UHGV virus genome: UHGV-0116345
Strand: one strand, 5' to 3'
Origin: a virus
DNA length: 12,449 nt
Numbering within the stretch: the first letter of the stretch is position 1; the number at the start of each line of letters is the position of its first letter. The position numbers and the translations under genes were made by a program. Below the pieces are notes generated by a model. The model worked only from the letters and a program-made list of their open reading frames with translations. It was not told where the DNA came from and searched no databases. Positions 765 to 7,119 of this stretch are shown here, piece by piece.

Positions 765-1037
765 TCATCTTGCTGTCAGTTGTTTGGATTTCCGGTAGCC
801 TGCCGCGTAAAGAGCTACGTTCGGAAGACAAGTTGAACCTTCATATTTTCTGGTCAACGTTGTCAGAGTTATCACTTCTGCTCTCATTGCTGGTTTGAGC
901 TTGCATTGCAAGACCACTCGTGAAGGGGTTGGCCTGTGTAGCTTGTCGGAGCTGATCGCCTCCTGACTTTGCAGATTTGCGCGACGAGCTCTACGGCGAG
1001 AAGCTGCGGTGCCTTTAAATTCTGTTTTTCTGGACAT
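765..1037 (-). CDS. N: N-like transcription antitermination protein (small basic protein with N-terminal arginine-rich motif), 90 aa
   Basis: ORF in track (765..1109); start refined to ATG 1035-1037 with GGGAGG RBS 5 nt upstream. N-terminus MSRKTEFKGTAASRRRARRANLQ is an arginine-rich motif typical of lambdoid N proteins. It is the first gene downstream of the nutL-like site on the leftward transcript. Call is by position and composition, not sequence identity to lambda N. Confidence 0.55.
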   Translation of the reverse strand: MSRKTEFKGTAASRRRARRANLQSQEAISSDKLHRPTPSRVVLQCKLKPAMRAEVITLTTLTRKYEGSTCLPNVALYAAGYRKSKQLTAR

Positions 1038-1136
1038 GGATTCCTCCCGAATAAACTTTGGCGATGCAATCTCGAAGCTCCTCCTGAGACGGTTGCTTCG
1101 GCATTGCATCCCACAGCTTATGTGGTTGGGTGATCT

Positions 1137-1440: not shown

Positions 1441-1470
1441 GCAAAGAAAACCCGGCGCTGAGGCCGGGTT
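1441..1470 (-). terminator. Rho-independent terminator closing the cI / two-gene cassette transcript
   Basis: Stem cccggc (1451-1456) / gccggg (1463-1468), 6-nt loop, followed on the minus strand by UUUUCUUUG. Lies immediately 3' of the stop of the 250-aa gene (1474-1476). Confidence 0.7.
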
Positions 1471-1473
1471 GTA

Positions 1474-2226
1474 TTATGCTGCAAGTCTCTTAACCCAAGT
1501 CTCTCTTTTGGAGAATGGTAGAACTTGGCTTGATTCATGGAAGAGTAAGGAGAGTTGTTGCATTTGATCACCAATTGCTTCGCTGTCTATAACAACAAAT
1601 CTGTTGTTATACTCCTCACTTGAAGCTTTAAGATCAATTAGTTTCCCAAGCAATGAGTAAGCACTATTCCAGCTTCCTCCGTGTTTCACGCTTGATGTAA
1701 AAACGTATTTAGGTATGTCGGTTTTTATTGTTACAGGGACGGTAATTTGATGTCCACTCAAGCCATATACGTTTTCACGAAGAGAAAGTGCGTCTCTAAG
1801 CTCTGTGTGATATAGATAATCAATAACCATACTTTCAAACTTTTCAGCTTGAACTGGCTGATACCAGTCTAACGACAAAGTTGATGCGAGTATACCAGCT
1901 CTAATTATGTTCGATGTAATCGCACCGACATCCTTTTCTGTTGCCCAAGCAATGATTTCTCCTCGAGCATTGAGTTCTGCGCCTTCTTTAAGCAGTAATT
2001 GTCGTATCTCATCAAGTCGTTTTTTGGTAAGCGAGATCCCTCTTGCCTCCATATTCATTAAGGCATCGCATCTGTCACTAACTAAATACCTACCATTGAC
2101 TTCACGGATAAAGGCACCGACATGCTCTCCATCATCACAGTAAGTGAATGGACTGATAATTCTCAAGGTCTTGCCTATTGGATGGCATTCGAAACCTAGT
2201 TGTGAGATCACTGTTGAGCACATCAT
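1474..2226 (-). CDS. Unknown protein, 250 aa; downstream gene of the two-gene cassette at the rexAB-equivalent locus (candidate phage-exclusion/defence component)
   Basis: ORF in track. Start ATG overlaps the stop of the upstream gene (ATGATG / TGA overlap at 2223-2226), indicating translational coupling. No transmembrane segments and no catalytic motif I can assign. No resemblance to RexA/RexB by recollection. Confidence 0.7.
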   Translation of the reverse strand: MMCSTVISQLGFECHPIGKTLRIISPFTYCDDGEHVGAFIREVNGRYLVSDRCDALMNMEARGISLTKKRLDEIRQLLLKEGAELNARGEIIAWATEKDVGAITSNIIRAGILASTLSLDWYQPVQAEKFESMVIDYLYHTELRDALSLRENVYGLSGHQITVPVTIKTDIPKYVFTSSVKHGGSWNSAYSLLGKLIDLKASSEEYNNRFVVIDSEAIGDQMQQLSLLFHESSQVLPFSKRETWVKRLAA

Positions 2227-2780
2227 ATTCCAAACCCCATTTGCCCCGACTCATCTTCAAGCGGTAAAGGTATTCTCCCAGAGTAAGTTATGTTCAGATG
2301 TTTACAGAAGTAATTCCAATACCCTACCAGGTCATCTGGGTTTATGTCATCTTCGATTGGAAACGCTATTCTATCACTATAGTATCCAGCTTCTTCATAG
2401 TATACATGGTAGTGAGCACCGTAAATGATATCTTGGTACTTCGGATGATCGACCTTGTAACTATTCGTGTGTTTGTCAAAGTGATAGGTATCTACCGCGA
2501 AAACCCTCTTGTTATGATAGAAAGCAATAATATTTATTTTAGGGTAAGAAATCGGGTCATCAGGTTCTGAATCCTGATCTGGTTTCCATTTCAGTTCAAA
2601 CTTTAGCCCTTGTATAGGTATACAATCCTCATCCAAGGGGATGATATGGGCTTGTAGCCACATATCAGAGCGACTTGGTTTCTGTTTCCATTTAACGCCA
2701 GAAAAGTTAACTATTTTTTTACAATAAAGTACTTTATCAACTTCTACTTGGCTTGGCTGATAATCATCTATTTTTGCCAA
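2223..2780 (-). CDS. Unknown protein, 185 aa, acidic and His/Tyr-rich; upstream gene of the two-gene cassette at the rexAB-equivalent locus
   Basis: ORF in track; the first in-frame initiator after the upstream stop is TTG at 2778-2780 (next ATG is 39 codons in), so the start is uncertain. Codon usage is atypical for enterobacteria (about ten ATA Ile codons and several AGA/AGG) and the interval is visibly AT-rich versus flanking phage genes. Function unknown. Confidence 0.65.
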   Translation of the reverse strand: MAKIDDYQPSQVEVDKVLYCKKIVNFSGVKWKQKPSRSDMWLQAHIIPLDEDCIPIQGLKFELKWKPDQDSEPDDPISYPKINIIAFYHNKRVFAVDTYHFDKHTNSYKVDHPKYQDIIYGAHYHVYYEEAGYYSDRIAFPIEDDINPDDLVGYWNYFCKHLNITYSGRIPLPLEDESGQMGFGI

Positions 2781-2797: not shown

Positions 2798-2828
2798 ATT
2801 GTAGATAAAAGTGGTTTCATCACCCAAA
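2798..2828 (-). promoter_or_regulatory. Candidate sigma70 promoter for the cassette in the cI-cassette junction (-35 TTGGGT, 18-nt spacer, -10 TACAAT on the minus strand)
   Basis: Hexamers read directly on the minus strand overlapping the cI stop. Not validated; the cassette may also simply be read through from PRM. Confidence 0.3.
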
Positions 2829-3479
2829 CGTCTCTTCAGGCCATTGGCTGGCGATAACTTTCCCCACAACGGAACAACTCTCATTGCATGGGATCATTGG
2901 GTATTGTGGGTTTAGTGGCTGTAGAAACACCTGACCGCTATCCCTGATCAGTTTCTTGAAGGTAAATTCATCACCACCAAGTCTGGCTATGCAGAAATCG
3001 CCGGGCTCAACAGCTTGCTCAGGGTCAACCAGAATTAACATCCCGTCAGGAAAGCTGGGTTTGGAACCTGTTGGTGCGGTCATTGAGTTACCTTCAACCT
3101 CAAGCCAGAATGCAGAGTCACTGGCTTTTTTGGTTGTGCTTACCAATCTCTCCGCATCGCCTTTGGTAAAGGTTCTGAGTTCTGGAGAGAACATCCCAGC
3201 CTGAACATGAGAAAAAACAGGGTACTCATATTGTTTTTTAACTGGGGCCGATGAGTATTCGCCAACAGGTGAAAATGTCCCGTCGTGGTTGAATGATATG
3301 TTATCAATACCAAGGTATTTAAACACCACACCAATATCACTAAGAGATGGATGACGAGATCCGCGCAACCAGTGTCCAATCCCACCCTGCGTCATACCTA
3401 GCTCTTCGGCTAACTTCTCTTGAGTTATGCCGAGCTCTTTCATTCTGGATCTAGCCAGTTCATACCATTTCATTTTCAT
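2820..3479 (-). CDS. cI: CI-type prophage repressor: novel N-terminal HTH domain fused to a lambda-cI-like C-terminal oligomerisation/autocleavage domain
   Basis: C-terminal ~135 aa ([29 protein letters not shown]...[12 protein letters not shown]) match lambda cI as I recall it, including the Ala-Gly autocleavage site within VQAGMF. The N-terminal ~85 aa are unrelated to lambda cI but HTH-like. Start is either ATG 3479 (MKMKW, possibly leaderless from PRM) or ATG 3473 (AAGGA 7 nt upstream). Confidence 0.9.
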
Positions 3480-3590
3480 GTCCTTATTATTACGCTCTGT
3501 ACTGGAACCATCCATGCACAATGTGTATTTTTACTTGTATTCGCAAAGTACATATTGTATTTTTTTATTCGTGTTTACTATGGAGGGCAT
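3480..3590. promoter_or_regulatory. OR region: divergent PRM / PR promoters and operator sites between cI and cro
   Basis: 110-bp AT-rich divergent intergenic region. Repeated TGTA/TACA-containing elements (CTTGTATTCGCAAAGTACATAT at 3534-3555; ATGTGTATTTTTAC; ATTGTATTTTTTTAT). Candidate PR -35/-10 pairs are TTGTAT / TATTTT or TTTACT / TATTGT. Operators do not resemble lambda's, consistent with the non-lambda cI N-terminus. Confidence 0.6.
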
Positions 3591-3862: not shown

Positions 3863-3947
3863 GTTCCAAGATATCTGACCAACTAAGGCCATATGCGTTT
3901 CCACGCATACCTTTCAACTAACTATTCACTATTGGAAATCTTAAGAA

Positions 3948-4244
3948 ATGGAAAGAACAAGTTACAGCAAACTATCACAGCGCGACGTTGATCGCGCAGA
4001 AACAGATTTACTCATCAACCTGTCAGCGATTACCCAGCGCGGTCTGGCAAAGATGATTGGCTGTCATGAATCGAAGATAAGCAGAACGGACTGGAGATTT
4101 ATTGCTTCGGTCTTGTGTGCTTTCGGAATGGCATCAGACATCAGTCCGATTAGCAGGGCTTTTAAGTATGCGCTTGATGGACTCACCAATAAAAAACGCC
4201 CGGCGGCAACCGAGCGTTCTGAACAAATCCAGATGGAATTCTGA
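3948..4244 (+). CDS. cII: CII-like transcriptional activator, 98 aa
   Basis: C-terminus LTNKKRPAATERSEQIQMEF matches the lambda CII C-terminus as recalled. The N-terminal part is diverged but contains an HTH-like segment. Position between cro/nutR and O. Confidence 0.85.
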   Translation: MERTSYSKLSQRDVDRAETDLLINLSAITQRGLAKMIGCHESKISRTDWRFIASVLCAFGMASDISPISRAFKYALDGLTNKKRPAATERSEQIQMEF

Positions 4245-4276
4245 GGTCATTACTGGATCAATCCACAGGAGTCATT

Positions 4277-5131
4277 ATGACAAATACAGCAAAAATACTC
4301 AACTTCTGCAGAGGTAACTTTGCCAAACAGGAGCGTAATGTGGCAGATCTCGATGATGGTTACGCCAGACTATCAAATATGCTGCTTGAGGCTTATTCAG
4401 GCGCAGATCTGACCAAGCGACAGTTTAAAGTGCTGCTTGCCATTCTGCGTAAAACCTATGGGTGGAATAAACCAATGGACAGAATCACCGATTCTCAACT
4501 TAGCGAGATTACAAAGTTACCCGTCAAACGGTGCAATGAAGCCAAGTTAGAACTCGTCAGAATGAATATTATCAAGCAGCAAGGCGGCATGTTTGGACCA
4601 AACAAAAACATCTCAGAATGGTGCATCCCTCAAAACGAGGGAAAATCCCCTAAAACGAGGGATAAAACATCCCTCAAATTGGGGGATTGCTATCCCTCAA
4701 AACAGGGGGACACAAAAGACACTATTACAAAAGAAAAAAGAAATAATAAAAACACTATGTCCGAAAGTGTCCGGACGGAGTGTGAAAAATCATCTGACCG
4801 TCACGAAGAAACCGACAAGGCATTCGAGGAAATATTCTGGTGTGCAGGCATGCGGAAAGCCGGGAAAAAAAACGCAGCTTCGGCATTCAGAACACAGTTC
4901 AGGGAATGGCGTAAAACTACCAGGGGTACGGCAAGCGAGTTTGCCACGATGCTGGCAGAAGACATCGCATGCAGGAATGGTAAGCAGTTCGGATTCGACA
5001 GGTTGTTACCATCGAGCTACCTGAACGGTCAGCGCTGGAACGACGAGAAGCCAGAAACTATTCAACCACAATCCAAACCATCATCCGCAATCACCGTATC
5101 GAAAACTGGCTACGTGTTTTTCGACAGGTGA
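4277..5131 (+). CDS. O: Replication initiator O (lambda-like N-terminal ori-binding domain, divergent C-terminal domain), 284 aa
   Basis: N-terminal ~170 aa (MTNTAKILNF.RGNFA.QERNVADLDDGYARLSNMLLEAYSGADLTKRQFKVLLAILRKTYGWNKPMDRITDSQLSEITKLPVKRCNEAKLELVRMNIIKQQGGMFGPNKNISEWCIPQNEGKSPKTRDKTSLKL...) match lambda O as recalled. The C-terminal third differs and the downstream partner is a primase-helicase, not lambda P. Confidence 0.9.
   Translation: MTNTAKILNFCRGNFAKQERNVADLDDGYARLSNMLLEAYSGADLTKRQFKVLLAILRKTYGWNKPMDRITDSQLSEITKLPVKRCNEAKLELVRMNIIKQQGGMFGPNKNISEWCIPQNEGKSPKTRDKTSLKLGDCYPSKQGDTKDTITKEKRNNKNTMSESVRTECEKSSDRHEETDKAFEEIFWCAGMRKAGKKNAASAFRTQFREWRKTTRGTASEFATMLAEDIACRNGKQFGFDRLLPSSYLNGQRWNDEKPETIQPQSKPSSAITVSKTGYVFFDR
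4624..4755. repeat. ori-lambda-type replication origin inside O: four ~19-21-bp iterons (ATCCCTCAAAACGAGGGA-like) followed by an AT-rich unwinding region
   Basis: Iterons read directly at about 4624-4644, 4645-4665, 4669-4688 and 4691-4710, each an imperfect palindrome TCCCTCAAA..GAGGGA. AT-rich tract 4711-4755 (acaaaagaaaaaagaaataataaaaacac). Confidence 0.85.
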
Positions 5132-5134
5132 ACC

Positions 5135-5242
5135 ATGAAATCAAAAATCAAATCGTTACTGGTCGCTGGTTATAACCACGGCTGGTTAAGTATTTCGTTT
5201 GTCGATTTCTGGTTTAAAAATCTCAATCTGAGGGAATCATGA
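5135..5242 (+). CDS. Possible micro-ORF (35 aa, MKSKIKSLLVAGYNHGWLSISFVDFWFKNLNLRES) bridging O and the primase-helicase
   Basis: ATG 5135 is 3 nt after the O stop, with AGGTGA 5 nt upstream; its stop TGA (5240-5242) overlaps the ATG of the next gene. Below the ORF-track length cut-off; coding status unproven. Confidence 0.2.
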   Translation: MKSKIKSLLVAGYNHGWLSISFVDFWFKNLNLRES

Positions 5243-7119
5243 CTCCAAGTGAACTTAGCTACCTGCTTTGGGCGCAGGTTGACAGGGTGGCTCCACACCT
5301 GTTGCCAAACGGCAAGAAAGAGGGGCATGAGTGGGTTGCCGGTAACGTCAACGGTGACAAGGGAAACAGCCTTAAGGTCAACCTTAGCGGCAAGAAAAAA
5401 TGGGCTGATTTCGCTGAGGGAGACGGCGGTGACATGCTTGATTTGTGGATGGCATGTCGTGGAATTAACCTGCATCAGGCTATGCAGGAAGCGAAAGCAT
5501 TTCTCGGTATCAAGGATGACGATCACCATTTCGATGCCAGACGTGAGAAGAAATTCTCCAGACCTGATCGCAAGAAAATCGCCCGCTACGTTACCAGAAC
5601 AGAATCCCATCTTGAGTACCTGCAATCGCGTGGCATATCGCCAGAAATCGTAAAGCGCTACGAGGTTGTCAGCGGCAAGGTGTGGAATGGAGAGCGGGAA
5701 CTGGATGCTCTGGTGATTCCGTACAAACGCGATGGTGAGTTGTTGCAGGTCAAGCGAATCAGCACTGAGCGCCCGGACGGGAAGAAAGTCATTATGGCAG
5801 AAGGTGATTGCGAACCTTGCCTGTTCGGATGGCAGGCTCTGGACGCTGGCGTGAGGGCGGTTGTGCTTTGCGAAGGCGAAATTGATTGTATGAGCTATGC
5901 GCAATACGGCATCTCGGCGTTATCCGTGCCGTTTGGTGGCGGGAAAGGCGCTAAGCAACAGTGGATTGAGTTTGAGTATCACAACCTCGACAGGTTTGAG
6001 GAAATATTCATCTCGATGGACGTTGATGATGTTGGTCGTGAAGCCGCAAGGGAAATCGCAAGCCGACTCGGTGAACATCGTTGCCGTCTTGTTACTCTGC
6101 CGTACAAAGACATCAACGAATGCCTGATGAACGGTGTTACCGAGGATGAAATCTGGCAGTACATCGGCACGGCATCCTACTTCGATCCTGAAGAACTCTA
6201 CAGCGCGCGAGAGTTTTACCAGGACACTATCAACGCTTTCTACGGCAAGCAGCAGTATCTGTTTAATCCACCGTGGGAATCTCTGGCAGATAAATTCCAG
6301 TTCCGTGAGGCAGAGTTGACGCTGGTCAATGGGGTGAACGGTCACGGAAAAACGGAGGTTGTCGGGCATATGGCACTTGAGGCAATGCGTCAGGGTGTGA
6401 AGACGTGCATCGCGTCACTTGAGCTGAAGCCTGGTATTCTCCTTAAGCGCCTTACCCGTCAGGCGACGTGCTGCAAGATGCCGCCAGTGCTGGAAATTGA
6501 CTCTGCATTTAAATTTTATGACGAAAGACTTTGGGTGTTTGGCCTGACCGGAACGGCGAAAGCCGACAGGCTGATCGAAATATTCGACTACGCTCGCCGC
6601 CGATACGGGATCCAGTTATTCATCATCGACAGCCTGATGAAATGTGGCATAGGCGACGATGACTATAACGGGCAGAAGGCGTTTGTTGACTCGATTTGCG
6701 ACTTCAAAAACAAAACAAACTCCCACGTCATTCTCGTTACTCACTCGCGAAAAGGAGACAGCGAAGAAAAACCAACCGGGAAAATGGACGTAAAAGGCTC
6801 TGGAGCGATAACAGACCTGACAGACAACCTTTTCATCATCTGGCGTAACAAGGCTCGCGAGAGAGCGTTACAGAGAGTTCAGAGTGGTGAAAAGATGTCA
6901 GAGAAGGACGAACAGCTACTGGCGTCTCCTGCATCTGTTTTGATGCTTGAAAAACAACGTAACGGCGAAGGTTGGGAAGGTGGTGTCCCGTTGTTCCTTG
7001 ACGAGCAATCGCACCAGTTCCTGCAACTTGAATCAGGATCGCCATATAGCTACATCGCCAATATGCCGAAATCGGAATATGACGAGGCGTGGCGACAGGA
7101 AAACGTGACGGAGTATTAA
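5239..7119 (+). CDS. Bifunctional DNA primase / replicative helicase (TOPRIM primase domain + DnaB/RecA-like ATPase with Walker A GVNGHGKT and Walker B FIIDS), 626 aa
   Basis: ATG 5239 with GAGGGA RBS. TOPRIM-like acidic motifs (VVLCEGEIDCMSYAQ ... ISMDVDDVGREAA). Walker A at LVNGVNGHGKTEV and Walker B at LFIIDSLMK in the C-terminal half. Occupies the position of lambda P. Confidence 0.85.
   Translation: MTPSELSYLLWAQVDRVAPHLLPNGKKEGHEWVAGNVNGDKGNSLKVNLSGKKKWADFAEGDGGDMLDLWMACRGINLHQAMQEAKAFLGIKDDDHHFDARREKKFSRPDRKKIARYVTRTESHLEYLQSRGISPEIVKRYEVVSGKVWNGERELDALVIPYKRDGELLQVKRISTERPDGKKVIMAEGDCEPCLFGWQALDAGVRAVVLCEGEIDCMSYAQYGISALSVPFGGGKGAKQQWIEFEYHNLDRFEEIFISMDVDDVGREAAREIASRLGEHRCRLVTLPYKDINECLMNGVTEDEIWQYIGTASYFDPEELYSAREFYQDTINAFYGKQQYLFNPPWESLADKFQFREAELTLVNGVNGHGKTEVVGHMALEAMRQGVKTCIASLELKPGILLKRLTRQATCCKMPPVLEIDSAFKFYDERLWVFGLTGTAKADRLIEIFDYARRRYGIQLFIIDSLMKCGIGDDDYNGQKAFVDSICDFKNKTNSHVILVTHSRKGDSEEKPTGKMDVKGSGAITDLTDNLFIIWRNKARERALQRVQSGEKMSEKDEQLLASPASVLMLEKQRNGEGWEGGVPLFLDEQSHQFLQLESGSPYSYIANMPKSEYDEAWRQENVTEY

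Follow-up and report, generated by a model that had tools for sequence, protein, structure and literature searches.

A two-gene cassette in the cI operon of a prophage, related by sequence to the predicted defence candidate family PDC-M24, as a possible anti-phage module

What might be the function of two genes that lie immediately downstream of the cI repressor gene of a lambdoid prophage, in the place where phage lambda carries rexA and rexB? The question is raised by a stretch of 12,449 nucleotides of the virus genome UHGV-0116345, denoted here in its full length as the window, in which two such genes, named A and B in this work, had been described in a previous sequence-only reading as a candidate for an undescribed anti-phage module expressed in the lysogen. 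The features required to address the question are the following:

765-1109, minus strand: N
1441-1470, minus strand: intrinsic terminator closing the cI-A-B operon, homologous to tM of phage 933W
1474-2226, minus strand: gene B, an open reading frame of 250 aa with an ATG start
2223-2780, minus strand: gene A, an open reading frame of 185 aa with a TTG start
2820-3521, minus strand: cI-type repressor with HTH_3 and Peptidase_S24 domains (profile match, E 1e-28)
3486-3514, minus strand: probable PRM maintenance promoter (position carried over from the VT2-Sakai annotation)

The operon-like layout of cI, A, B and the terminator is established. The end of cI at position 2820 is followed by gene A after a gap of 39 nt, and the TGA stop codon of A and the ATG start codon of B share the tetranucleotide ATGA at 2223-2226, thus overlapping by 4 nt. 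The terminator is made of a GC-rich 8-bp stem (1449-1470) and a T-run extending to about position 1441; its RNA fold was calculated at -17 kcal/mol (z -3.1), a stability reached by none of 200 shuffled sequences, and its DNA matches, at 97% identity, a feature of 933W labelled 'tM, putative terminator for pM transcript'. The repressor is 98% identical to the annotated cI of VT2-Sakai, Stx2 II and PhiR11_1. Its coordinate 3521 denotes the start of the longest open reading frame, and the VT2-Sakai homolog is annotated from the MKMKW codon, at about 3473. The PRM promoter was placed by transferring the feature 'putative maintenance promoter for cI' of VT2-Sakai (L098, 3865-3893) with an offset of 379, from DNA that is 98.4% identical.

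The position of the pair is clarified by the phages that carry the 98%-identical cI, in which similarity to the window stops exactly at the cI stop codon and other cargo follows. In PhiR11_1 and 2G7b this cargo is a pair of genes encoding proteins of 283 and 163 aa, and in VT2-Sakai it consists of H0093 and H0092, after which a 'rho-independent terminator for pRM transcript' is annotated. In 933W, four genes fill the slot up to tM (L0084, L0083, stk and L0081); L0084 matches PDC-S43 (4e-41), and Stk is a member of the PD-T4-6 family (1e-37). It has been reported that RexAB, 933W Stk and 434 Hex are cotranscribed with cI from PRM and mostly exclude other phages, Stk causing the abortive infection of HK97 (PMC3564112). 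The variability of the slot behind one and the same cI, taken together with the PRM-cotranscribed exclusion genes, makes the positional argument of the sequence-only reading a sound one: the window pair does occupy the slot of lambda rexAB, as variable cargo bounded by the cI stop codon on one side and the pRM terminator on the other. The 933W genes share with A and B this slot and the homologous terminator closing it, and Stk offers the case of a documented abortive infection protein cotranscribed with cI. However, the Stk and L0084 proteins are unrelated to A and B, and neither of the latter has a kinase domain.

The slot also holds other genes deserving mention. A DUF3024 gene (PDC-S43, E 1e-38 to 4e-41) is found at positions 5044-5385 of an Izhakiella locus (L002), between cI and A, as well as in 933W, where it is L0084 (L015, 5305-5646), and candidate defence genes appear to stack modularly in this cI-proximal slot. 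The PhiR11_1 pair (L097, 1723-3103) and the 173-aa H0093 of VT2-Sakai (L098, 2176-2697) had no PADLOC match and are further candidate slot cargo.

Lambda RexA and RexB resemble the window pair in their slot between cI and the PRM-operon terminator, in being two genes and, presumably, in their expression in the lysogen. No similarity between A or B and RexA or RexB was found at E<=1 in scans of PADLOC, which includes Rex models, or of Pfam, NCBIfam and PHROG, in agreement with the lack of resemblance noted previously. Furthermore, RexB is a polytopic membrane protein, whereas neither A nor B has a transmembrane segment by hydropathy (maximal 19-residue Kyte-Doolittle means of 0.45 for A and 1.19 for B), so that both are, as judged from their sequences, soluble proteins; the folds differ as well. 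Considering the layout, the terminator and this solubility, the description of the cassette made from the sequence alone was accurate: the coordinates, minus strand and co-orientation with cI agree with the open reading frames called, the ATGA overlap is present, the terminator has its stem, its T-run, its shuffle test and its 933W homolog, and the absence of transmembrane helices, in which the pair departs from RexB, is borne out.

That description was wrong on a further point, namely that the two proteins belong to no recognisable defence family, since both are related to PDC-M24, a candidate family of PADLOC whose A component is DUF6978-like and whose B component is a DUF1828 protein. Protein B aligns from end to end with the PDC-M24B HMM (residues 2-249 on positions 4-254 of a 256-position profile, E 4.7e-10), and more distant B proteins match this HMM with values of up to 1.8e-15. 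The direct match of protein A to PDC-M24A is weak (E 4.8e-4, residues 104-163). However, an alignment by hhalign connected the family of the window A protein to a family of remote metagenomic A proteins (99.3% probability, E 1e-20, 165 columns), whose members match PDC-M24A at 2.5e-8. Integration of the B match, the hhalign bridge and the matches of the remote A proteins indicates that the pair is, at the level of sequence, a divergent, prophage-borne branch of PDC-M24, in which the gene order, A and then B, is also the same. PDC systems are a set of 145 predicted candidates, nominated by 'guilt-by-embedding', their genes being located inside BREX, DISARM or type I restriction-modification (R-M) loci (bioRxiv 10.1101/2024.01.29.577857). 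The window pair is like PDC-M24 in that the homology of B spans the whole protein, A is linked to the family by way of an intermediate branch and remote members adjoin R-M genes, but it differs in sitting in a prophage cI operon instead of inside a BREX, DISARM or type I R-M locus. The proposal of an undescribed anti-phage module consequently stands in part: the cI-operon cargo slot supports it, while the proteins are divergent members of PDC-M24 and not of an unrecognised family.

Among the remaining profile searches, protein B exceeds the gathering threshold of Pfam DUF1828 (PF08861; 33.5 bits versus 22, residues 26-110), whereas protein A stays below that of DUF6978 (PF22398; 22.0 bits versus 29.6), a domain matched by 6 of 18 members of the A family, at best with 1e-4. 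A profile search with A against 1.84 billion representatives yielded 20 matches only and did not reach true DUF6978 members, and a second, word-indexed search returned no protein annotated as DUF6978. In PADLOC-DB, no model besides PDC-M24 was matched by A or B at E<=1; NCBIfam gave no match, the PDB sequence search produced only designed-repeat artefacts, and both proteins fall in PHROGs families of unknown function. In the literature search, PDC-M24 appeared in no paper, DUF1828 and DUF6978 were mentioned only incidentally, and a study of the cassette was not found.

Both A and B are real genes. The N-terminus MAK.DDY of protein A is kept in all homologs, and homologs spread across Enterobacterales and Aeromonas (47-99% identity for gene B and 59-99% for gene A), and are further present in environmental metagenomes and a D3-like phage of Pseudomonas. 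Against homologs with 70-82% protein identity, Ka amounted to 0.11-0.25 for B and 0.22-0.43 for A, with synonymous sites being saturated, and these low Ka values next to saturated Ks denote strong purifying selection on both genes, with A changing at about 1.5-2 times the rate of B. The induced phages ev017, ev207, PhiR57_1 and PhiR63_2 carry the cassette with 100% identity, and 239 of the 5426 complete genomes of E. coli contain it, for instance those of Nissle 1917, ATCC 25922, NU14, UM146 and APEC O18. A search of plasmids recovered no homologs of gene B. As a separate observation, the start codon of gene A is TTG or GTG at almost every locus (window 2778-2780; L017-L096), while that of gene B is an ATG overlapping the stop codon of A, a conserved combination of weak start and overlap suggesting that the dose of A is kept low and tied to B. 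Another observation concerns a contig of 518 bp labelled Actinomadura rugatobispora (L009, NZ_JBHSON010000334.1), which contains an A/B junction 64-82% identical to the enterobacterial proteins; this actinomycete contig is most likely due to assembly contamination.

The distribution of the cassette brings up the notion that the pair serves lysogenic conversion, acting on host physiology or virulence with no relation to phages. Indeed, the cassette is common in strains of the ExPEC, APEC and UPEC type and in Nissle 1917, and its GC content, 0.37-0.42 versus about 0.48 in cI, is as low as expected for a moron. Nevertheless, A and B are cytoplasmic, with neither signal peptide nor transmembrane segment, the family extends over Enterobacterales, Aeromonas, a Pseudomonas phage and environmental metagenomes, and it is related to a family nominated from inside R-M, BREX and DISARM loci, all of which renders this explanation most improbable.

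Further evidence was derived from the genomic context of the homologs. The survey covered 96 loci with a B homolog, drawn from IMG/VR, from annotated phages and from a single genome for each species, together with the window itself, and 24 remote metagenomic loci were added, giving 120. Gene A lies immediately upstream of B and overlaps it in all of the 96 closer loci, and it is directly upstream of B in 23 of the 24 remote ones (119/120 overall). In 91 of the 96 closer loci, the gene of an S24 cI-type repressor precedes A on the same strand at a distance of 9-769 nt, so that the occurrence of the pair beside cI-like repressors, put forward as a check by the earlier reading, was confirmed. These upstream repressors fall into 26 clusters at 60% identity and 43 at 90%, and a repressor precedes the pair also in the Pseudomonas D3-like phage. 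Of the exceptions, one is the 518-bp contig and two are loci whose context is unclear; in another, a divergent Cro/YdaS-like gene is accompanied by a short putative repressor. Among the 24 remote loci, a cI-like gene is upstream in three, and the remote loci with such a repressor include L012, L121 and L122. In L100, L102 and L111, the pair is located on an island that bears an integrase and has an EcoP15I-Mod-like methylase (E 1e-22) as its neighbour, a type III-like neighbourhood to which the pair is adjacent, not embedded in it. The obligatory A-B pairing and its linkage to repressor operons and defence neighbourhoods are therefore established, and the pairing, the variety of the repressors and the R-M neighbours can be integrated by considering A and B as a single unit that passes from one immunity region to another and, in its remote forms, lies near R-M genes.

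In the Pseudomonas phage VB_PaD_phPA-G (L016, PP083311), positions 4420-5004 contain an unannotated A-like open reading frame of 194 aa that has a 4-nt overlap with the annotated B-like gene; it lies two genes downstream of a CI-like repressor, and the intervening gene weakly matches PDC-S48.

The linkage to self-cleaving S24 repressors in 91/96 loci would also be expected of a modulator of lysogeny or induction, tuning the RecA-dependent cleavage of the repressor or the DNA-damage response, and there is a precedent in 434 Hex, which is PRM-cotranscribed and also lowers induction (PMC3564112). However, at least 26 different repressor families accompany the pair, remote members stand beside an R-M methylase with no S24 repressor detected, and phages with the same cI do without the pair. 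The number of repressor families and the repressor-less remote members argue against a repressor-specific partner, and a role of this kind is regarded as very unlikely.

The structures predicted by AlphaFold2 were reasonably confident (pLDDT 82 and pTM 0.81 for A; pLDDT 85 for B). Protein B is predicted to have two domains, an N-terminal DUF1828 domain with a YbjN/T3SS-chaperone-like fold and a C-terminal domain with a restriction-endonuclease-like fold, in which the core alpha-beta-beta-beta-alpha-beta arrangement of the PD-(D/E)xK superfamily is predicted to be present. Nonetheless, the 64 unique sequences compared lack the canonical D..(D/E)xK signature and have no ExK; the residues conserved in this set are C3, G11, C14, S25, P26, D32 and D51 in the N-terminal part and G155, S157, G158, H159, P164, W186, G194, D198 and R209 in the C-terminal one. 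In this, B differs from PD-(D/E)xK effectors such as the NgoMIV/PspGI-type restriction enzymes or the nuclease domain of Can2/Card1, which have the catalytic signature, and it also lacks CARF or another known sensor, its N-terminal domain being YbjN/T3SS-chaperone-like. A TOPRIM reading of the acidic residues in the N-terminal domain was considered and dropped, the predicted sheet being an antiparallel meander. Protein A is predicted to be mostly beta, an orphan fold with no recognisable relative. It conserves W31, R92, D97, H104, N106, H123, H125 and P173 across 55 unique sequences, a set that looks like a catalytic or metal-binding site, and it ends in a disordered, acidic C-terminal tail (EDESGQ, finishing in S-G-Q).

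Two small, overlapping and strictly co-inherited genes, the first of them with a conserved weak start that suggests a limited dose and the second encoding a chaperone-like binding domain, could likewise form a toxin-antitoxin or addiction pair, in which one protein would be toxic and the other would neutralise it, mainly stabilising the prophage, with phage defence being secondary. Yet neither A nor B matches a toxin-antitoxin family in Pfam, NCBIfam or PADLOC, their 185 and 250 aa exceed the size of typical type II pairs, and a DNA-binding antitoxin domain was not detected. Such a pair is thus considered an unlikely explanation, bearing in mind that toxin-antitoxin and abortive-infection roles are not mutually exclusive.

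The operon layout, the strict pairing, the linkage to many unrelated repressors, the swappable slot shared with a known defence protein and the relatives near an R-M methylase lead to the reading preferred here, that A and B constitute a two-protein module, expressed in the lysogen together with cI, that shields the lysogen and with it the prophage from other phages. This defence role is drawn from context and is unproven; we consider it somewhat favoured by the evidence, and any specific mechanism has a much lower probability than the role itself.

A model for such a defence module may nonetheless be outlined. Transcription from PRM would proceed through A and B, and coupled translation and the weak TTG or GTG start would hold A at a low level tied to that of B. 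The chaperone-like DUF1828 domain of B would bind a partner, perhaps the conserved acidic C-terminal tail of A or else a phage trigger, and an A-B complex would be formed, possibly with the tail of A docked in that domain. The effector chemistry might reside in the Arg/Asp/His/Asn/His/His cluster of A, in the nuclease-fold domain of B or in both, the candidate non-canonical site of B being G-x-S-G-H, D198 and R209. Finally, it is conjectured that superinfection activates the module, leading to nucleic-acid damage or abortive infection. A stronger version, according to which the system is mechanistically new, with a new kind of effector enzyme (A, in its orphan fold with the invariant Arg/Asp/His/Asn/His/His cluster) controlled by a chaperone-like and degenerate-nuclease protein (B), and explains in part the lambdoid-phage resistance of Nissle 1917 and of about 4% of E. 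coli strains, is possible but doubtful.

Regarding Nissle 1917, Bury and coworkers (2018) held a prophage 3 gene, 'phage repressor pr' (EcN_1294), responsible for part of the resistance of this strain to Stx phages and lambda; it was reported to cut the plating of these phages about 200-fold, and the authors stated that another prophage 3 factor must exist (PMC5987069). The primers used in that work map to window positions 3902-3920, 4145-4162 and 4251-4271 (span 3902-4271), which identifies the gene as follows:

3948-4244, plus strand: 'pr' (EcN_1294), cII-position open reading frame of 98 aa (primer mapping)

Given these positions, 'pr' is the cII-position open reading frame and not the S24 cI at 2820-3521. 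The study was therefore rejected as a prior test of the A-B cassette, outside of which 'pr' maps.

Should the defence role prove true, it would provide the first functional evidence for the PDC-M24 candidate family, and one more system would join RexAB and Stk in the cI-operon cargo slot. Carriage of the cassette by Nissle 1917, a probiotic, and by the reference strain ATCC 25922 makes it relevant to phage therapy and strain engineering. Since A has no recognisable fold relative but a polar site that is sharply conserved, it could have a new chemistry, and the pair represents an attractive and easily testable target.

As for the rest of the window, the prophage is a mosaic. Its replication module (4277-7119, with open reading frames of 284 and 626 aa) is unlike the O/P genes of PhiR57_1, although the immunity region is identical, and an open reading frame of 227 aa lies beyond N, at 80-763 on the minus strand.
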